Source of the DNA: Promethearchaeota archaeon
Lineage (GTDB): Archaea > Asgardarchaeota > Lokiarchaeia > Sigyniarchaeales > SOKP01
Length of the DNA stretch: 19,141 nucleotides
Direction: 5' to 3'
Assembly: GCA_018238625.1 (NCBI GenBank)
Contig: JABCSY010000077.1
Span: 1-19,141 of the forward strand
The position numbers and the translations under genes are program-made. Below, piece by piece: positions 3,320 to 16,846 of this stretch. Numbering within the stretch: position 1 is the first letter of the stretch; each line of letters begins with the position of its first letter. The notes beneath the pieces are model-generated. The model made no database searches. It was not told the DNA's origin and saw only the letters and a list, made by a program, of their open reading frames with translations.

Positions 3320-4696
3320 TTAAATATAAATCTGGAGCCCCTTTTCCTCTAATTTCTTTAAAAAGGATGGAGAATTCTTAAAATTGTTTTCTCCTAAATA
3401 TAGTTCTTCTAAAAGAGCAAGAGACGAGATTGATTTTGGAAGTATAGTTAGTTTATTTCTTGAAAGGTTTAAGATTTTTAAGTTTTTTAATTTTCCAATT
3501 GTTTCAGGGATAGTTTCTAATTTATTATCGCTTAAATTTAAGTTTTCTAAGGAAGCAAGTGATCCTATTGAGTGTGGGACGTCTACTAACTCATTTCTTT
3601 CAAGGTCTAACGATTTTAATGATAATAGGTGAGCTATTGAAGGAGGGAGAGTAGTTAATAAATTCCAACTTAAATTCAACGCTATTAAATATTTTAGAGA
3701 TGATAAAGAATCTGGAAAATAAGTTAATTTATTATCGTGAAGATTTAGAGTTTTAAGGTTTATTAAATTTCCAATGTTATTAGGTAATAGTGTTAGTTGG
3801 TTTAATCGTAAATTTAAATGCTCTAATAATTTTAACGAACAAATTGAGGTTGGAAGATCTTGAAGTTCATTCTGCCAAAGTGACAATTCTTTAAGTTTAG
3901 AAAGTAAACCTATACTATCAGGAATTTTATTTATATTATTTACATTTAAATTAAGATATTCTAACGAATTTAAAGAGTTAATCCACTCTGGAATTTCTAT
4001 TATTTGGTTGTATCTTAGAGTAAGCTTTTTAAGAGCTTTAAGGTGTTTTATTGAGGGAAATTTTGTTAACCCTTTAAATATAAAATCTAACTCCACAATT
4101 TTACAACGTTCAATAGTATACTTCAATCTCCAATAAGTCTTTTTTAAGTAAATCAAGGTGAAATAATTGATTAAAATGTCAGTTAATTCCATATGCGTAA
4201 ATAGTTTCGCACCCTTGGAAAAACTTAAAGTCTCAAAGCCGATTTTAAAATCTATATCATCGATTTGTTTTATCTCGTGGATCAAAATTAGTTTTGTAAG
4301 GCGTTCGTTTCTGTTTTCTAAGTTGCTAATTATAGATATTAATGAATTAAAAATTGTATACAAGCAAGTTTGAGATTCTTCGTGATGAAGAGCCCATCTT
4401 AGTGGGTTCAACGCTTTATCTTTAAAATTATACCCTAAAGTAAGAGCGGCTTCGTTTCTGATTTTTTCTTCTGAGTCCGAAATAAGTAAATTTTCAAAGA
4501 AACTAAAAATCTTCTCCTTCTTTACGCTAGTATTATCAAAATTATCCCCAATAGTTCTTAAAATTTGAAGGCTTTCGTAGCGATCTTTAACTTTTGTACT
4601 ATTTTCTATTAATGCGATTAGTTGTTTAACTGCCGATGATATATCGATTTTTTTTTTGTTAAATTCGTCAAATATCTTAGTTGGTGTGCGTCTCGT
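3320..4696 (-). CDS. Leucine-rich repeat protein with N-terminal HEAT-like helical domain (paralog 1); start extended beyond the ORF-track TTG at 4411
   Basis: About 10 regular 23-aa LRRs (LxxLxxLxLxxNxLxxLPxxI). The frame is open to 4708, and the extra 95 codons (TRRTPTKIFDEFNKKKIDISSAVKQLIALIENS...FFENLLISDSEEKIRNEAAL) align with the N-terminus of paralog 2. The proposed ACG start at 4696 is inferred. Confidence 0.85.
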   Translation of the reverse strand, partial: TRRTPTKIFDEFNKKKIDISSAVKQLIALIENSTKVKDRYESLQILRTIGDNFDNTSVKKEKIFSFFENLLISDSEEKIRNEAALTLGYNFKDKALNPLRWALHHEESQTCLYTIFNSLISIISNLENRNERLTKLILIHEIKQIDDIDFKIGFETLSFSKGAKLFTHMELTDILINYFTLIYLKKTYWRLKYTIERCKIVELDFIFKGLTKFPSIKHLKALKKLTLRYNQIIEIPEWINSLNSLEYLNLNVNNINKIPDSIGLLSKLKELSLWQNELQDLPTSICSLKLLEHLNLRLNQLTLLPNNIGNLINLKTLNLHDNKLTYFPDSLSSLKYLIALNLSWNLLTTLPPSIAHLLSLKSLDLERNELVDVPHSIGSLASLENLNLSDNKLETIPETIGKLKNLKILNLSRNKLTILPKSISSLALLEELYLGENNFKNSPSFLKKLEEKGLQIYI

Positions 4697-4712: not shown

Positions 4713-6212
4713 CTATTTGTAAATTATTAATCCATTTTTTTCTAATTTATACAAAAAATCGGGTGTTTCTTCAATATTATTAAAATTTAAATCTAGAATC
4801 TTCAATGATTTAAGATTCTCAAGAGATTCGGGAAGTATTTTCAATTTATTCCCCCATAAACTCAATGTCTCAAGAGATTTAAGAGCTCCCAGGCAATCGG
4901 GTAGATTTTCGAAACGGTTCCAACTTAAATTTAAAACTTTTAAATTAATTAACGAGCTAAACGACTCAGGTAGAGTAGTTAAATTATTATTCCATAGAGT
5001 TAATTCTTTAAGCGTAGAAATCTTACCAATTGATTCAGGAAGTTCAATCAACTTATTATCAAATAATTGTAATATTTCTAATGATTGCAACGACCCAAAC
5101 CAAGAAGGAAGTGATGTCAATTTATTACCTCCCAAACCCAATTTTTTAAGAGATTTAAGAGGCTTTACCCATTTAGGAAGTCTTTCTATATTGTTTAATC
5201 CCAAATCTAATTGTTTAAGAGAAGTCATTCGCTTGAAAGAACCCTTCAATTTGCTTAGATCATTTCCGTGCAAATCTAAAACTTCTAACTTTGATATATT
5301 CTTTATTGTTTTCGGCAAAGAAGTTAATTCGTTCGCCCTTAAATCTAAATGTTTTAACGATTTTAAAGAGCCTATAGAAGGGGGTAGACTTTTAAGTTTA
5401 TTATATCTCAAATTCAACACATTTAAAGCTGTTAATAAACCAATAGAATGAGGAATTGATTTAATTTTATTATAACTCAAATCTAAGTGAATCATTGAAG
5501 ATAATAAGCCAATAGTTTTAGGTATCGTATTAAGTCTATTAAATTTTAAATCTAGAAATTCTAATGAAGATAAAAATTCCATAAAATCTGGAAATTTGTT
5601 TAAAATTGTCCATCCGAAAACGTGACTACTAACATCAGATAAATCTAATTCAAAAATTAGACCCTCTTTCACCTTAAAATTAATTTGACCAAATCTTTTT
5701 TCCAGATCGGATACAATAAAATAATTCTCGATAATACGTGAGAGTTCAAAACTCGAGAAACTTTCAATATCTCTTTTTTTGAATAAGAGATTTAAATTTT
5801 CAGTTATCTTCTCATTTCTTATTTTTTTAATTTTACTAATTAACAAAGATTTTGATTGAAGAGTATCAATTTTTCCTAATATCTTTGAGATTACTAACAA
5901 ACATTTTAGAGATTCCTCGTGTTTCAAAGCCCATCTCATTGGCTCAAAAGCATTATCTAAAAATAATTTTTCTATGACATTAATCGAATAAAATCTTATC
6001 GATTCATGAGAATCTGAAATTAGTAAATTTTCTAATAGTTTAAAAACATCATTAGATTTAGCATCAATCTGAGATAGTGTATTGATGCTTTCAATTCTTG
6101 TATCTAAATTATCGCTATTGTCTATAATCGATATTAATTGATTTATCGCAGAAATTTTATCTAATGTCTTGTTCTTGTAATTTTTATTAATTATTTTTGG
6201 AGATAATTCCAT
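4713..6212 (-). CDS. Leucine-rich repeat protein with N-terminal HEAT-like helical domain (paralog 2)
   Basis: 12 regular 23-aa LRRs; N-terminal helical segment LENLLISDSHESIR...EPMRWALKHEES; C-cap FLYKLEKNGLIIYK resembles FLKKLEEKGLQIYI of paralog 1. Confidence 0.92.
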   Translation of the reverse strand: MELSPKIINKNYKNKTLDKISAINQLISIIDNSDNLDTRIESINTLSQIDAKSNDVFKLLENLLISDSHESIRFYSINVIEKLFLDNAFEPMRWALKHEESLKCLLVISKILGKIDTLQSKSLLISKIKKIRNEKITENLNLLFKKRDIESFSSFELSRIIENYFIVSDLEKRFGQINFKVKEGLIFELDLSDVSSHVFGWTILNKFPDFMEFLSSLEFLDLKFNRLNTIPKTIGLLSSMIHLDLSYNKIKSIPHSIGLLTALNVLNLRYNKLKSLPPSIGSLKSLKHLDLRANELTSLPKTIKNISKLEVLDLHGNDLSKLKGSFKRMTSLKQLDLGLNNIERLPKWVKPLKSLKKLGLGGNKLTSLPSWFGSLQSLEILQLFDNKLIELPESIGKISTLKELTLWNNNLTTLPESFSSLINLKVLNLSWNRFENLPDCLGALKSLETLSLWGNKLKILPESLENLKSLKILDLNFNNIEETPDFLYKLEKNGLIIYK

Positions 6213-6306: not shown

Positions 6307-8211
6307 CTAAAAATATTTCTCTAAAGCTAGCGCTTTAATTTTACTTATTGTAGGGAGACCATTTTGTTTATCCCAACCTCGTTCGTCATAATAATCGTCT
6401 AGTAATTGATTGGCAATATCTTGAGTAATAATTACTTCTCCGTAGAAATCTTGGAATTTAAGTACATTTTCTCCAATTTTTAAGGGTTTAAACCATCCGC
6501 TAGGGAATTTATCGTCCTTTCGAGAAAAACCTTCTTTTAAATTCATTAACTTCAATAAATTCCAAGAACGTTCAGCTGATAGTCTTAATTCTTCTTGATG
6601 TAAATTGAATCCGGTAATTAAATTGTATAAATCGGTTACTAATTCTAAACTAAAAAATCTATTCATTTGAGCTCTAGCGCACAATCCTAGAGAGGTTAGT
6701 ACGGTGTACCAATCTTCAGAGTATCTGGTTAACCGTCCAACATTTACGCCCATTCCTTTTTTGGGAGGACTAAATATTCTAGGGAAAGCGGTTTCGGGAA
6801 TACCCATCCTATTAAAATGGCTTTTCATTTTATCCGGAGATCCTCCAGCGCCAACATAAGTCGGTGATCCACCCGAAGCTACATGAGCGCCTTTAGGGTT
6901 TACTACTTGTTCAAATTCCATTGTTCCTAATCGCAAAAACCTAGGTTCGAATATAATATCTAAACCTTTCACTGTAAGCATTTCTTTTGAAAAAGTTTTA
7001 TTTTCTCCGGCTAATTTTTTCCACCCATCTGCTAATATATCTCCAAATCCTTCTCTTTTTGCGATTATATCAATAAGGTGCTGAAAAGTCTTAAAATCTT
7101 GCTTCCACTCAATACCTAACTTTTCATTGGTGAGGATCCCTCGTTCATTCATTTTACTTATAAATTCGAACAGCGCTGTCATAGTTAATGAATCCAATCC
7201 ATATCTACTTATTAGATCAAACGCTTTTATTGCTTGGTCGTATGTATCTAGCCCATCAACGGTAAACATCATTAAGGGGTTAATTATTGAGGATGTGTAA
7301 TTAATCAAACCGCTATATTCTCCTTCACGTATTTCAAGAATATCTTTATCAGCCATAGGACAAGATGGACAAGCTATACGTCTTTTTTTCATTTTTTTTA
7401 GGTACATCCTATCGCTACATTGGCGAGCTTTTTTCTTTTGTCCTTTTGCGGTTAAGAACATGCCAACGGGCAAGCTTCTTAACATACCTAATTCAATCCA
7501 AGAATCCCTATGAGGATATTTGCGGATACGCTCAATCAGACTATTATACAGCTTATTAAATTTTTTTGGTTCTGCTATTGGAATCCCTTTTGTCCCTTGA
7601 GTCAAAATAGCTTTAAGGTTTTTAGACCCCATAATTGCAGCAAGTCCACCACGCCCTAAAGTTGAGGTTTTATCTATTAGCGTCATCGAAGATTTAACAA
7701 GATTTTCTCCCGCTTGACCAATAGCAATTACTCCACTTTCACCATGTTTCTTCTTCAAATAATTAGTTGTTTCAACAATATCTTTACCCCATATTACTTT
7801 AGCTTTAGTTAATTCAACATGATCGTCAGATATATGTAAATATACTGGTTTTTCTGATTTCCCAGTTACAATTATATGATCAAATCCCGCTTGCTTCAGG
7901 TTAAACGCAAAGCTCATACTTCCGCAAGAATTAGCTATGGCTCCGGTCGCTGGAAATCTTGAAATTGCAACGGTTCGAGAAGAACCAGGAACAATAGTTC
8001 CTACTAAAGGTCCAGTTCCAAATATTATTAAATTTTTTGATGAAAATGGATCCGTTAACGGTTTGAATCGATCAGCAAAAAGTTTACAATTCATTCCAAA
8101 TCCGCCAATGAACCTTTTAAGGTCTCTGACATCTTCTTTAATAATTGACACTTTATTTTCCGTTAAATCAATGTCAAGTATATTTCCAGTGTAACCAAAC
8201 CAATCCGTTAT
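6307..8211 (-). CDS. aor: Aldehyde:ferredoxin oxidoreductase family (tungstopterin) enzyme, divergent; start extended beyond the ORF-track GTG at 8151
   Basis: Motifs IFGTGPLVGT, LKQAGFDHIIVTGKSEKPVYL, IGQAGEN, GRGGLAAIMGSKNLKAI, SLGLC, YYDERGWD. The in-frame upstream sequence encodes the conserved N-terminal FGYTGNILDIDLT. The ATA/ACG start is inferred. Confidence 0.88.
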   Translation of the reverse strand: MTDWFGYTGNILDIDLTENKVSIIKEDVRDLKRFIGGFGMNCKLFADRFKPLTDPFSSKNLIIFGTGPLVGTIVPGSSRTVAISRFPATGAIANSCGSMSFAFNLKQAGFDHIIVTGKSEKPVYLHISDDHVELTKAKVIWGKDIVETTNYLKKKHGESGVIAIGQAGENLVKSSMTLIDKTSTLGRGGLAAIMGSKNLKAILTQGTKGIPIAEPKKFNKLYNSLIERIRKYPHRDSWIELGMLRSLPVGMFLTAKGQKKKARQCSDRMYLKKMKKRRIACPSCPMADKDILEIREGEYSGLINYTSSIINPLMMFTVDGLDTYDQAIKAFDLISRYGLDSLTMTALFEFISKMNERGILTNEKLGIEWKQDFKTFQHLIDIIAKREGFGDILADGWKKLAGENKTFSKEMLTVKGLDIIFEPRFLRLGTMEFEQVVNPKGAHVASGGSPTYVGAGGSPDKMKSHFNRMGIPETAFPRIFSPPKKGMGVNVGRLTRYSEDWYTVLTSLGLCARAQMNRFFSLELVTDLYNLITGFNLHQEELRLSAERSWNLLKLMNLKEGFSRKDDKFPSGWFKPLKIGENVLKFQDFYGEVIITQDIANQLLDDYYDERGWDKQNGLPTISKIKALALEKYF

Positions 8212-8453
8212 TCCTCACCCTCTTTGAGTTCTAAAGCTCCATACAGACAATAATTTACACATTGCCCGCAGTGAGTACATCCATCCAAGAACGAGATTTT
8301 TGGGATTAGTTCGTAGGCATCAAAAATTTGAATAAAAGCGTCAGTAGGGGAATATTTATTTTTATATATGGAGGAACAGATTAATTGACAGATTCTACAT
8401 CCTGTACATTTTTCCTCGTGTATAATTATCTCAAGTAATTTAGATTTTACCAA
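8208..8453 (-). CDS. 2x[4Fe-4S] ferredoxin-like protein coupled to aor
   Basis: CTGCRICQLIC and CTHCGQCVNYC motifs; 81 aa; TTG start; its stop overlaps the proposed aor start. Confidence 0.9.
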   Translation of the reverse strand: MVKSKLLEIIIHEEKCTGCRICQLICSSIYKNKYSPTDAFIQIFDAYELIPKISFLDGCTHCGQCVNYCLYGALELKEGEE

Positions 8454-12890: not shown

Positions 12891-13511
12891 TTAAAAAGCC
12901 ATTAGGATAAGGATAAATGCCACCATAATAATTGTTCCGCTAACGGGCGTCACCCACGTAAATACTACAAAACCAATTATTAGAACGACCCACCATGCAT
13001 AGGACACCTTTACATCTATTTTATTTTGCAAAGTTAAAATTAATATTATTGCAAAAACGAATCCAACAATAGAAAGGGCTATACTTGTAGGTGAACCAGA
13101 AAGGAATAGCATTACAGATTCATATATTAGATAACATGCTCCAATTAAAGCGACAATTTTCGATTCTGCGTAAGTTTTCTTCTGGCTTAAAAATTCTAGT
13201 AATGCTGCTATTAAAACTAAAATGCCTCCAAGATAAGAGGATCCAGCAGCAAATTCAAATAATATTAAGATAAGCCCGATAATTAACAATACCCACCATA
13301 AAAAAGGAATGTTCACTTTCTTAAAATCCACGATTTCTAATGATATGAACATCACTGCTGCAAAGATTAGTCCTATTATTCCATACATTATATTCAATGG
13401 GATTGCTGTGAAAAAATATCCTATACTTACTTGAATAACGACTAACGCACCAATAAGAGCTACAACTTTAGATGCAGATATTCCTACTTTAGAAGTTTCT
13501 CCCATATTCAT
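12891..13511 (-). CDS. Multi-pass membrane protein built from two internal ~4-TM repeats
   Basis: Strongly hydrophobic; repeated SK[VI]VALIGA ... I[IV]G[LF][IV]FA ... WWV[LV]LIIG motifs. Confidence 0.85.
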   Translation of the reverse strand: MNMGETSKVGISASKVVALIGALVVIQVSIGYFFTAIPLNIMYGIIGLIFAAVMFISLEIVDFKKVNIPFLWWVLLIIGLILILFEFAAGSSYLGGILVLIAALLEFLSQKKTYAESKIVALIGACYLIYESVMLFLSGSPTSIALSIVGFVFAIILILTLQNKIDVKVSYAWWVVLIIGFVVFTWVTPVSGTIIMVAFILILMAF

Positions 13512-13693
13512 TCACTTATTTGTTTTTTAAAATTGTTTTTTTTTTTTGAATTTCAAACAAAATTGAAATTATAGTTTAACTAGAAAGATGTGTTTTTATA
13601 CTTTGTCTTACAATTTATAAGTTTAATAGTTTTAAACTTCAAATTCTATTAATTTAAAATAAATAATAAAAATTATTATAGAAATAATAATTT

Positions 13694-13760
13694 CCGAAAC
13701 CATAGCTAATGGTTCGTCGCCTTGCGACTCATTTTTTCTCGCAAGAGTCATTCCTTCGGT
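13694..13760 (-). promoter_or_regulatory. Eukaryote-like SECIS element in the 3' UTR of hdrA-mvhD
   Basis: mRNA: ACCGAAGGA-AUGAC-UCUUGCGA-GAAAAAAUGAG-UCGCAAGG-CGAC-GAACCAUUAGCUAUGGUUUCGG. It has an AUGAN/NGAN tandem GA core, an 8-bp stem, an unpaired A6 in the loop and a closing CCGAA/UUCGG helix. It is a GC-rich island in AT-rich intergenic DNA, right after a gene with in-frame TGAs. Confidence 0.85.
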
Positions 13761-14234
13761 TTAATTTTTCTTTTGTTCTACTTTTGAATCTTTTTTTTTC
13801 ATTTCTGAACGCAGAGATTCTTTAATTGGATTGCTGCCTAAATTTTCGATTATTTCTGAGATTCTGGTGACTTCTTCTTGAAATCTTTGACCTTCAGCTG
13901 CGGTACAATGGAACATTTGGATTCTATCAGGTGAAATACCCGTAGTTTTTAAAATTTCTCTCGCATACTTTACATTTTTTGCTGCTACTAAATTACCCGT
14001 TTCATAATCGCATTCTCCTTCGTATCATCCAGCAACAATTACTCCATCGGCACCCTTTCCAATCGCACGCATCATAAGTGAAGGCGTTACGCGTCCAGTA
14101 CAGTTGATTCTTATAGGTCTAATCGTAGAAGGGTATTGAGCGCGTATCGTGCCAGCCATATCTCCAGCACCATAACCTCATTTCCAGCACATAAATGTTA
14201 AAATCTTTATTTGGTCTTTATCGTTTGTCGCCAC
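13761..14234 (-). CDS. mvhD: Hydrogenase iron-sulfur subunit MvhD/VhuD, selenoprotein (Sec19, Sec70), 157 aa
   Basis: Missing from ORF track. GTG start after GAGGTG: MATNDKDQIKILTFMCWK(U)GYGAGDMAGTIRAQYPSTIRPIRINCTGRVTPSLMMRAIGKGADGVIVAG(U)YEGECDYETGNLVAAKNVKYAREILKTTGISPDRIQMFHCTAAEGQRFQEEV...KKN*. TGAs at 14178-14180 and 14025-14027 correspond to the Cys of CxxC and GCxxGxC. Confidence 0.93.
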
Positions 14235-14239
14235 TTTTT

Positions 14240-14245
14240 ACACCT
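14240..14245 (-). promoter_or_regulatory. Shine-Dalgarno GAGGTG for mvhD
   Basis: Minus strand TAG-A-GAGGTG-TAAAAA-GTG in the 13-nt hdrA/mvhD gap. Confidence 0.65.
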
Positions 14246-14247
14246 CT

Positions 14248-16212
14248 CTATATCTCTTCTAAAATAGCATCGATTTGTTTTTCATATTGAGGTTCACGGT
14301 AGTATCTTAGCGTAATCGCCTCAGAAGGACAATTGGCTAAGCACGAACCGCATCCACGGCATAATATCTCGTTTACATCTGCTCCGTCAGCTAAAGTCTT
14401 AATTGCATCGTAAGAACAATTTAATTCACACAGTCCACACTTCGCGCATCTATCTTTGTCTACAGTAGCTCGAATTAATAAAATCCTATATTTATCCTTT
14501 CCCATCAATCGTGCTAAAGAAGAAGCTGCCGCTCTCCCTTGAGCTATTGATTCAGCTACAGATTTAGGACCTTGAGAAGCTCCTGCAAGTACTATACCCG
14601 GAATTTTGGTGTCAATTGGATTTAAACGAGAGTGAAATTCCTTGAAGAATCCATCTTGGCTCGTTTCAAGCTTTAAGATTCTACCAATTTTTTCTACTCC
14701 ATTTGCGGGCACCATAGCGCACGATAGAATTACCATGTCGTACTCAAGTTCTTTTAATCTTGTGCTACTAAGCGTGTTTTGGATAATTATTTTAAGATTT
14801 TGAGTTTCTGGGTCTTCTTGAATTTTTGAGACATTAGTTCTAATGTACCTAATACCTTCTTTTCGTGATGCGGTGTAATACTCTTCGTAATCTTTTCCAG
14901 CGGCTCGAATATCTATGTAGGCAACAGAGATTTCCATTTCAGGATAATGTTGTTTTATGAGTTTAGAATTTTTAATTGAAACCATACAACATACTCCGGC
15001 ACTGCAATAAGTATTCATGTTTAAATCTCTCGACCCGACACATTGAATAAATAGTATTTTTTCAGGTTTTTTTCCGTCAGAAGGGCGAACTAAATGTCCA
15101 ACGGTTGGTCCGTTAGGCGCAAGAATCCTTTCTAACTTCATTTGGGTTATTACATTTGGATAGACATTGTAACCTAAATAACCCGTTTCTGGTTCGTACT
15201 CGTCCCATCCTGTAGCTACTACTACTGAGCCAACTTTAACATCTACAATTTCATCTTCTTGATCAAAATCAATTGCTTTAACTTCACAAACGCCTTTACA
15301 CAATTCACATTTAATGCAACGCGTCATATCAATTTGGGCTATCGAAGGTACTGCTTGAGCAAACGAAAGGTAAATTGCTTTTCTCGGGTTCATTCCTTCG
15401 TTAAATTCGTCGTATCCGTAAGCGGGACACACTTCAAAGCAAGCACCGCAGCCATTGCAGTCGTTATTGACATACCTTGCCCTTTTACGGATTTTAACAT
15501 CGAAGTTTCCAACGAATCCAGAAATCTCTTCCACTTCACTATAAGTGTATATGTTTAACCTTGGAGTTCTTGCTGCTTCGAGCATAACAGGGCCAAGGAT
15601 TCATATACTACAATCGTCAGTGGGAAATGTTCGATCTAACATAGCCATTTTTCCACCAGTTGTCGGATTTTTCTCAACCAAATGGACTTCAAAACCTTCT
15701 TCAGCCAAATCTATTCCTGCTGATAGTCCTGCTACGCCACCACCAATAATTAAGGCTTTCTTAGTGATATCTACCTCTTTGATTAGGATTTTTTCTAAAA
15801 CACTAGCCCTAGCAACGCCAGACCGAATAAGATCCTCAGCGGTTCTTTGTGCCCCTGGTTTATCTTGTTTGTGGACATAACTCGCGTGTTCTCGTATGTT
15901 CACGAATTCCAAGTAAGAAGGGTCCAAACCCATAGATTCTAGTACGCTTTTAAAAACAGGTTCGTGAGTTATTGGGGTGCAAGACGCCATAACTAACCTA
16001 TTAGCATTGTTCTCGATCATTTTTTCTTTGATGAATTCAGCACCTGGTTGAGTACACATGGATATATAGTCTAAAGCTTCAACTACATTTGGAAGCGTTT
16101 TTGAATATTCTGATAGAGCTTTTGTATCGATTATTTCGGCAATATTAATTCCTCATTGGCATACTGCCACGAAGATTCTCGGTTCATCATTTGTAATTTC
16201 AGTTTCTACCAT
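14248..16212 (-). CDS. hdrA: Heterodisulfide reductase subunit A (FAD, Fe-S), selenoprotein (Sec20, Sec204), 654 aa
   Basis: One frame joins the ORF-track pieces 15601..16059 and 14248..15585 plus a missed N-terminus: MVETEITNDEPRIFVAVCQ(U)GINIAEIID...ASCTPITHE...IIGGGVAG...DRTFPTDDCSI(U)ILGPVMLEAA...CNGCGACFEVC...QCVGSRD...YCSAGVCC...CRGCGSCLANC. TGAs at 16153-16155 and 15601-15603 are at conserved Cys sites. Confidence 0.95.
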
Positions 16213-16426
16213 TGCATAAATCACTTTTGTTCCTTTTTGTTAGTTTCCTCCAATAATTTGTAATAATAGTTGTTATGAATTTAAAATATTTTATTCTAAT
16301 TTAAAATAACTGATTAAAAAAATTAACTTTAATTCAAAAATCTTTTATGTGTTTTTTAAACAATTGAATAAAAAAAGTTCGATTAAATCAAATTTAAATA
16401 GAACTTCTACGGTTATTGAGATAGAG

Positions 16427-16846
16427 ATGTTATTAAATTTATTACAAATGGGAGGTCCTATAGATAAGGAAACTTTGTCTCTAATCCTTATGGCAGCTTT
16501 TGCGGGTGGAGATATCTTATTATTAAAACTCGGGTTAAAAATAACCAAAGCTCGTGAAAGAACAAGAATGAAATGGGTCGCAGTAAGTTTTCTAATTCAA
16601 TTTGGAGTAATTTTTATTATTAGTTCTCCCATGTTTTTGTTAGGATTCGCAGGGAAGTTCGATGGAGACCCTGAAGTAGTCATCCCGATAATAATTCTTT
16701 GTACTTTTATTGACTTAAACGTAATTAATGTCATACATCAAGTTGGCCTTAAACGTTCGTTAATCGTAGTATCGATAATACTCCTTCCAATCGTCTTTAT
16801 TATGGCTAATATGGGATCTATTCTCTCAGGTCCCACGGGATTTTAA
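16427..16846 (+). CDS. Hypothetical membrane protein (~4 TM)
   Basis: Four hydrophobic segments. ATG at 16427 (after GAGATAGAG) is preferred to the ORF-track start at 16349, whose extension looks like AT-rich intergenic DNA. Confidence 0.7.
   Translation: MLLNLLQMGGPIDKETLSLILMAAFAGGDILLLKLGLKITKARERTRMKWVAVSFLIQFGVIFIISSPMFLLGFAGKFDGDPEVVIPIIILCTFIDLNVINVIHQVGLKRSLIVVSIILLPIVFIMANMGSILSGPTGF

Follow-up and report, generated by a model that had tools for sequence, protein, structure and literature searches.

The window analysed here, a stretch of 19,141 nucleotides from a Lokiarchaeal (Promethearchaeota) genome, very probably carries a bicistronic hdrA-mvhD (vhuD) selenoprotein operon in which a single selenocysteine insertion sequence (SECIS), located directly 3' of the second gene, is shared by both cistrons. 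Each cistron contains two in-frame UGA codons, and all four are predicted to specify selenocysteine (Sec, U), a reading in which, taken jointly with that of the single shared element, we place high confidence. The genome is a draft of 4.29 Mb in 201 contigs (32% G+C), and its nearest relatives among public genomes are metagenome-assembled genomes labelled Promethearchaeota (Lokiarchaeal). The features that carry the argument are, from 5' to 3' along the minus strand:

16212-14248, minus: hdrA, HdrA-like flavo-iron-sulfur protein of 654 aa with TGA read as U; ATG at 16212, stop codon TAG at 14250-14248
16155-16153 (codon 20) and 15603-15601 (codon 204), minus: in-frame TGA codons of hdrA, putative Sec
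14247-14235, minus: intercistronic spacer of 13 nt, AGAGGTGTAAAAA, with a Shine-Dalgarno-like GAGGTG
14234-13761, minus: mvhD/vhuD (FlpD family), 157 aa; GTG start codon, stop codon TAA at 13763-13761
14180-14178 (codon 19) and 14027-14025 (codon 70), minus: in-frame TGA codons of mvhD, putative Sec
13717-13751, minus: lokiSECIS core hairpin, with AUGA, C.C mismatch, 8-bp stem, 11-nt apical loop and 3' GA

A SECIS hairpin after mvhD and the search for a second element

The core hairpin opens with an AUGA motif (13751-13748), followed by a C.C mismatch at the ninth stem position (13747/13719), eight Watson-Crick base pairs (13746-13739 with 13727-13720), an A-rich apical loop of 11 nt (GAAAAAAUGAG, 13738-13728) and, on the 3' side, a GA (13718-13717). 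The full fold around it (13759-13694) begins 2 nt past the mvhD stop codon. Distances from the UGA codons to the AUGA are 2404 and 1852 nt for hdrA, and 429 and 276 nt for mvhD. An earlier sequence-only reading of this DNA had placed a hairpin after mvhD and the first UGA up to ~2.4 kb from it; the distance was correct, and the hairpin is borne out by its lokiSECIS core and by its covariance score.

Related loci (65) were gathered with the MvhD protein as query, and 59 non-identical elements were aligned to build a covariance model. Compensatory changes were present in seven of the eight stem pairs (RNAalifold consensus, 59 sequences). Within the AUGA, U16, G17 and A18 were invariant and A15 was at least 90% conserved; A30-A32 and G38 of the apical loop, and G48, A49 and C50 on the 3' side, were also invariant. 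The ninth stem position, a C.C mismatch in the window, often forms a pair in relatives (A-U, U-A or C-G). The element has the features that define lokiSECIS elements (Mariotti et al. 2016, Mol Biol Evol 33:2441, PMC4989117), which are described there as an AUGA 5' of the stem, a 9-bp stem bearing an 11-nt loop, an A-rich loop start with G (usually AG) at the loop end, a 3' GA (or AA), and a place near the stop codon of a gene with UGAs at Cys positions of its homologues; here the fold follows the mvhD stop codon, and hdrA codon 20 is Cys in three of 51 orthologues. It is predicted to be a SECIS of the eukaryote-like, kink-turn type (AUGA ... GA core, A-rich 11-nt loop).

Searching the whole window on both strands with the covariance model, filters off, gave a score of 82.2 bits (E 2e-22) at 13687-13765(-), while the next best match, at 5434 on the plus strand, reached 14.2 bits. 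The sequence-only reading had reported no similar hairpin in the 5' leader (16213-16340), had called for a covariance scan of both genes, and had named a second conserved SECIS in or upstream of hdrA as the observation that would speak against it. On the coding strand, the best scores within hdrA and mvhD were 11.0 and 9.3 bits, and the leader gave no covariance-model match, again with filters off. The same arrangement was seen in relatives. With default filters, 62 of the 65 related loci had one full-length match (56.6-92.2 bits) directly 3' of mvhD; in the remaining three, the match was clipped by the locus end (L069) or the locus stopped short of the site (L073, L074). No match at E<=1 was found within any hdrA or its leader among these 65 loci. 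When 15 diverse loci (95.5 kb) were searched with filters off, each gave one strong match, and the sole match in an hdrA region scored 12.8 bits. A second conserved SECIS was therefore not found in the window, in the 15 loci or in the 65, and the synonymous-site profile described below was flat.

Sec-type hdrA paralogues with one to five TGAs were common in a 151-genome sample of the phylum. This sample supplied 29 further hdrA loci, which partly overlap in species with the 65-locus set and are not independent of it. A SECIS match was located ~0.5 kb 3' of hdrA in 24 of the 29; two others had no downstream DNA, two (L108, L109) had a divergent SECIS after mvhD that was located by pattern search, and one (L112) had a SECIS-like fold with an atypical 3' core. 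As a within-genome control, eight paralogous mvhD loci were searched with filters off. Only the UGA-containing locus L005 (contig C119) was matched, at 46.9 bits; the seven loci without an in-frame TGA scored at most 11 bits.

It is also conceivable, although we consider it highly unlikely, that a further recoding element, differently shaped and located in hdrA, mvhD or the 5' leader, serves the hdrA UGAs. Models for such an element are the bacterial in-frame SECIS, eukaryotic Sec-redefinition elements and the SECIS in the 5'-untranslated region (5'-UTR) of a Methanocaldococcus fdhA. The covariance model sees only lokiSECIS-like shapes, and an Rfam cmscan of 13400-16500 gave no match at E<=10 among 4227 families, nor did Rfam match anything in the whole window at gathering thresholds; since even the real lokiSECIS is matched by no Rfam family, structure libraries cannot help here. 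Inside the genes, however, any other kind of recoding element would be expected to suppress synonymous change. Observed-over-expected synonymous-codon identity was measured in 15-codon windows on codon alignments of 51 full-length hdrA and 66 mvhD orthologues. For hdrA the profile was flat (mean 1.09, standard deviation 0.07) with a single excursion, to 1.42, at the leader and start codon; for mvhD it was also flat, with a maximum of 1.21 at the 3' end beside the SECIS. Identity did not rise around any of the four UGAs, and no hidden element shows. These results agree with the RNAz analysis in PMC4989117, which, as given there, covered these genes plus 200 nt of flank at either end and detected no further conserved structure.

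Several candidates for further elements were rejected. A recurrent in-frame pattern match starting ATGAGAGC, located just 5' of mvhD codon 70 in many relatives, arose where a permissive pattern, with one mismatch and a 21-nt loop, fell on the conserved codons MRAIGKGADGVIVAG; the window lacks it, its Arg codon there being CGT, and the covariance model does not score it. A match of 23.5 bits at L062 4402-4483(+) lacks the 5' stem strand and is not preceded by a convincing UGA-containing open reading frame (ORF). Lying ~0.9 kb downstream of the real SECIS, it copies part of the fold's 3' half and is probably a decayed duplicate. C47:3591, picked by pattern, has an atypical loop and was not listed by the covariance-model search of the genome. 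That search scored 150 of 6114 first-look candidates, and SECIS counts for the genome are lower bounds.

Two other SECIS matches in the genome were recorded as separate observations. One (G000:C7:5315-5385(+), 54 bits) lies ~14-200 nt after a short open frame of 61 codons between stops, which has a membrane-like look and a GGGUSC motif with one in-frame TGA; the frame may encode a small selenoprotein that belongs to none of the five families widespread in Asgard archaea. The other (G000:C200:113-194(+), 58.6 bits) is 113 nt from the contig start, so its selenoprotein gene has been cut off by the assembly.

Reading of the UGA codons and probable co-transcription

The proteins were named by Pfam and NCBIfam profile searches. 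The hdrA product contains the FAD/NAD-binding and 4Fe-4S domains of HdrA and scored 769.8 bits against HdrA2 (residues 12-653) and 592 bits against HdrA, both below the equivalog cut-offs. The mvhD product matched FlpD PF02662 with 142.5 bits (cut-off 22.3) and the VhuD model with 149 bits (cut-off 215). Because the HdrA and VhuD scores are below the equivalog cut-offs, the names are family-level rather than equivalog-level. The mvhD product also matched positions 641-774 of the HdrA2 model NF040770, the C-terminal MvhD-like part of a model that describes fused HdrA-MvhD, so that the pair of cistrons here is the counterpart of a single fused polypeptide found in other archaea.

Alignment of orthologues showed that the UGA positions are conserved. 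TGA occupied the column of hdrA codon 20 in 48 of 51 full-length orthologues, with TGT (Cys) in the other three, and the column of codon 204 in all 51. In mvhD, the codon-19 column was TGA in 66/66 sequences and the codon-70 column in all 64 with a residue there. Additional UGAs occur in some relatives, where they align with residue 53, 78 or 599. Differences within hdrA codons 1-19 fell mostly at third positions (464 versus 212 and 161), and residues flanking U20 were conserved on both sides, which argues that translation starts upstream of the UGA at codon 20. In all 64 sequences compared, the hdrA stop codon came directly after the final aligned residue; it was TAA in 31, TAG in 33 and TGA in none, as expected if UGAs on the same mRNA are recoded; the absence of UGA as the hdrA terminator has been read as selection against a recodable stop (PMC4989117). 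These data bear on another alternative, namely that the hdrA UGAs are true stop codons, that the gene is decayed or makes only fragments, and that mvhD alone encodes a selenoprotein. Nothing beyond a standard reading of the genetic code speaks for this alternative, and we give it almost no credence: 48-51 of 51 orthologues retain the TGA positions, with Cys at codon 20 in the three exceptions, substitutions before and after the UGAs are of the coding type, and the frame stays open over all 654 codons.

Components of a Sec machinery were detected elsewhere in the genome. SepSecS was identified with 386 bits, above the cut-off, and an EFSec-like GTPase of 486 aa is encoded 3.6 kb from it on contig C107. 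The best model for the latter was selB, at 238 bits (cut-off 242) as against 149 for EF-Tu.

Co-transcription of the two genes was approached through their spacing and through public RNA libraries. That hdrA and mvhD are separated by 13 nt (14235-14247), mostly Shine-Dalgarno sequence, had been noted from the sequence; the length is correct, and the spacer AGAGGTGTAAAAA contains GAGGTG. Among relatives the spacer was 13 nt in 32 of 62 loci with an assignable start and at most 19 nt, and adjacency of the two genes with a spacer of <=19 nt was kept in all relatives examined. Six metatranscriptomic runs cover part of the stretch and four of them were compared with it. RNA-library contigs from close relatives, 90-99% identical, cover hdrA and mvhD, and the junction between the genes was bridged in three runs from two studies: X15 (13771-14292), X16 (13770-14343) and X18 (14162-14362). 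The bridging contigs fit co-transcription of hdrA and mvhD without proving it. In the four runs no contig at >=90% identity covered 13655-13770, the region of the SECIS, and nothing follows from this on whether the SECIS is in the transcript. The X15 and X16 contigs both end at 16271; this position is not usable as a hint to a transcript 5' end because both come from one study.

The two genes might also be transcribed separately, for example from an mvhD promoter within the 3' end of hdrA, with the SECIS acting in trans or with the hdrA UGAs read without a SECIS. An internal promoter is compatible with the data here, and none of the RNA contigs compared spans hdrA through to the SECIS. Nevertheless, the 13-nt spacer with its ribosome-binding site leaves no room for a promoter or terminator, adjacency is kept in the relatives, the junction is bridged, and hdrA never stops with TGA, as expected for a recoded mRNA and as argued also in PMC4989117. 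Separate transcripts, which the sequence-only reading had named as evidence against itself, are thus very improbable indeed, and the evidence favours one transcript, although it is not proof.

Five points weigh against a shared SECIS that directs Sec insertion at all four UGAs. First, no tRNA-Sec was found in the 201-contig draft by an RF01852 search or by ARAGORN. The best RF01852 matches (35.7 bits) were ordinary tRNA-Arg and tRNA-Gly genes and were rejected. ARAGORN reported 12 tRNAs in the whole draft, so the run is not a reliable tRNA census; many tRNA genes, perhaps intron-containing, may have been missed or left unassembled. The window itself contains no tRNA gene. Second, that the element inserts Sec, and that it does so for hdrA, is suggested by comparative inference, both here and in the literature. 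Third, the lokiarchaeal SECIS vhuU.2 was inactive in a Methanococcus maripaludis reporter, as reported in PMC11881835. A missing host factor would explain this failure, and would be a simpler reason than the use of a minimal-hairpin construct (see below). Fourth, the bridging contigs come from relatives and do not represent single molecules, and carry-over of DNA may have contributed. Fifth, where transcription and translation are coupled, the order in which the first UGA and the SECIS become available poses a timing problem, which is a legitimate question.

The junction around the hairpin and other features of the window

The core hairpin is embedded in a larger fold. Its parts, and the region that follows it, are:

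13694-13759, minus: full SECIS fold, a three-way junction of lower helix, SECIS arm and second hairpin
13759-13755 (CCGAA) with 13698-13694 (UUCGG), minus: lower helix
13713-13699, minus: second hairpin, ACCAU-UAGCU-AUGGU, between the 3' GA-C and the 3' strand of the lower helix
13655-13693, minus: A/U-rich tail 3' of the SECIS fold, with several oligo-T runs as read from the sequence; probable archaeal termination region

In relatives, the lower helix CCGA(A)/(U)UCGG is strongly conserved within the orthologue group together with the nested second hairpin. Across several selenoprotein gene families the junction, its second hairpin often with a GCAA or GCGA loop, was seen in L010-L072, L076-L079, L108, L109 and L113-L116 as well as in the window. 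Built from quite different helix sequences, it encloses other SECIS elements of the genome (PrxL, the second hdrA-mvhD pair, a VhuU-like gene and others) and is present at distant hdrA-mvhD pairs, e.g. as CGAUGG/CCAUCG and CUGCUGC/GCGGCAG.

On the model-fitted alignment, double changes were found in 15 of 18 pairs, and 87.4% of cells were paired, compared with 76.1% after shuffling and at most 50.2% with the partners slid. The count for the lower helix (72% paired) is depressed on this alignment because a 1-nt difference in the length of the 5' junction misregisters about half of the rows. Helices were therefore counted in each sequence separately, with shuffled flanks as a control. The second hairpin was present in all 65 distinct elements, and in 61 of them a lower helix of 4 bp or more came directly after it, versus a mean of 4.3 and a maximum of 11 with shuffled flanks, a contrast that is overstated because the sequences are related. 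Unconstrained folding of single sequences gave the three-way topology in at least 43 of the 65. Elements of hdrA-mvhD orthologues folded with the whole junction had predicted energies of -10.5 to -20.9 kcal/mol. The lokiarchaeal construct that was inactive in M. maripaludis has a predicted energy of -6.9 kcal/mol (PMC11881835), which suggests that it was a minimal hairpin; the three-way junction could thus matter for reporter design.

The text consulted of PMC4989117 and of the later Asgard survey PMC11227280 describes a stem, a loop and a core and makes no mention of a three-way junction. A literature search on SECIS elements with a three-way junction yielded nothing on Asgard archaea. Novelty for the description cannot be claimed.

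Elsewhere in the window, an aldehyde:ferredoxin oxidoreductase gene has, in the region 8151-8280(-), a Pfam N-terminal domain that starts ~12 codons upstream of the first canonical start codon, GTG 8151. Between an upstream TGA and the start of the domain there is no in-frame ATG, GTG or TTG, and there is no SECIS nearby; either a non-canonical start codon or an assembly error is involved. The gene is preceded by an ORF for a small 2x[4Fe-4S] ferredoxin (8453-8208). Two adjoining genes, 3320-4411 and 4713-6212 (-), encode leucine-rich-repeat proteins (Pfam LRR_8, LRR_4). Leucine-rich repeats are a eukaryote-like domain family typical of Asgard genomes.

Known systems and recoding at a distance

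The arrangement is already known, as PMC4989117 described exactly this case in 2016 and PMC11227280 extended it across Asgard archaea in 2024; the window is another instance. According to the former, every Loki HdrA-VhuD pair has one lokiSECIS in common, placed downstream of VhuD, and the two genes are probably carried by one polycistronic mRNA with up to six UGA codons over ~2 kb. The window agrees with these pairs in having hdrA followed by vhuD on the same strand with a very short spacer and multiple UGAs in both genes; in a single AUGA...GA hairpin, found only after vhuD, whose 11-nt A-rich loop ends in AG; in an hdrA that ends in UAA or UAG; and in the reading of a SECIS shared on a polycistronic mRNA over ~2 kb. 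Nothing essential differs, the stem being eight Watson-Crick pairs plus C.C here versus 9 bp as described there (PMC4989117). That one 3' SECIS serves both cistrons across a stop and restart, as the sequence-only reading had proposed, is thus supported by the absence of a second element and by the bridged junction, but the idea is not new.

The Asgard survey assembled 1439 selenoprotein sequences (Huang, Xiao, Zhang 2024, ISME J 18:wrae111, PMC11227280). The window element corresponds to its eSECIS-like type I of hdrA/frhD, with an AUGA_GA core and an A-rich apical loop. As the main text of PMC11227280 presents them, type I elements have no conserved lower-stem or internal-loop nucleotides across families, whereas within this orthologue group the CCGA/UCGG helix and the second hairpin are conserved.

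SECIS elements in the 3'-UTR of Methanococcales and Methanopyrus genes include that of vhuD, with two UGAs 50 codons apart (PMC4989117), and in an M. maripaludis reporter recoding occurred 520-679 nt upstream of the SECIS (PMC9622424). As with the element here, the Methanococcales SECIS is not part of the coding sequence, the UGAs it acts on are hundreds of nucleotides upstream, and the host is a prokaryote whose genes form operons, which raises the same timing question. These elements differ from that of the window in having a GAA_A kink-turn-like loop and in that the neighbouring hdrA has its own SECIS (PMC4989117); in the window there is one for two cistrons, over 2.4 kb. The eukaryotic SECIS (AUGA/GA kink-turn quartet, AA in the apical loop; SelP with its many UGAs) resembles the window element in core motif, A-rich loop and 3' position, and in the predicted action at a distance on several UGAs. 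In contrast to the eukaryotic SECIS, the window element has a shorter stem and a place on what is probably a polycistronic mRNA, and no Rfam family matches it at E<=10. According to the text of PMC4989117, no SBP2 homologue is known in Asgard archaea.

How, then, might one SECIS serve UGAs in two cistrons? Most likely it would act in cis at a distance, as in eukaryotes. Any ribosome translating the same mRNA would receive a hypothetical SECIS-binding factor along with EFSec and Sec-tRNA(Sec), and the hdrA stop codon and mvhD restart that separate the UGA from the SECIS would be irrelevant on such a model. Complete HdrA could come only from transcripts whose 3' end had already been made, so ribosomes reaching the UGA at codon 20 earlier should terminate or pause. 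This might mean delayed or uncoupled translation, or a checkpoint, as the second half of the sequence-only reading had proposed. The timing problem extends beyond this locus, since it arises with every archaeal 3'-UTR SECIS; full-text literature searches found no treatment of a conflict between transcription and translation timing for archaea.

A more elaborate proposal, which we regard as tentative and on the whole unlikely, is that the functional unit is, in place of the published minimal hairpin, the ~66-nt three-way junction, in which the lower helix, the kink-turn SECIS arm and the second arm with its GNRA-like cap would form a platform for an Asgard SECIS-binding factor, recoding would extend across the cistron boundary over 2.4 kb, and, given the early UGA at codon 20, synthesis of HdrA and MvhD would depend on a finished transcript. 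If true, a prokaryote with coupled transcription-translation would possess a built-in transcript-completion checkpoint, at the cost of only a 19-residue abortive peptide.

What is added here to the known arrangement is a quantitative confirmation that the element is single, through the unfiltered covariance scan and the synonymous-site profile, together with a control for specificity within the genome, weak transcript evidence and a conserved three-way junction around the hairpin. Asgard archaea are the archaeal lineage closest to eukaryotes. With a eukaryote-type SECIS that would serve several UGAs in two cistrons of a prokaryotic mRNA, the hdrA-mvhD operon is among the most striking cases of recoding at a distance.

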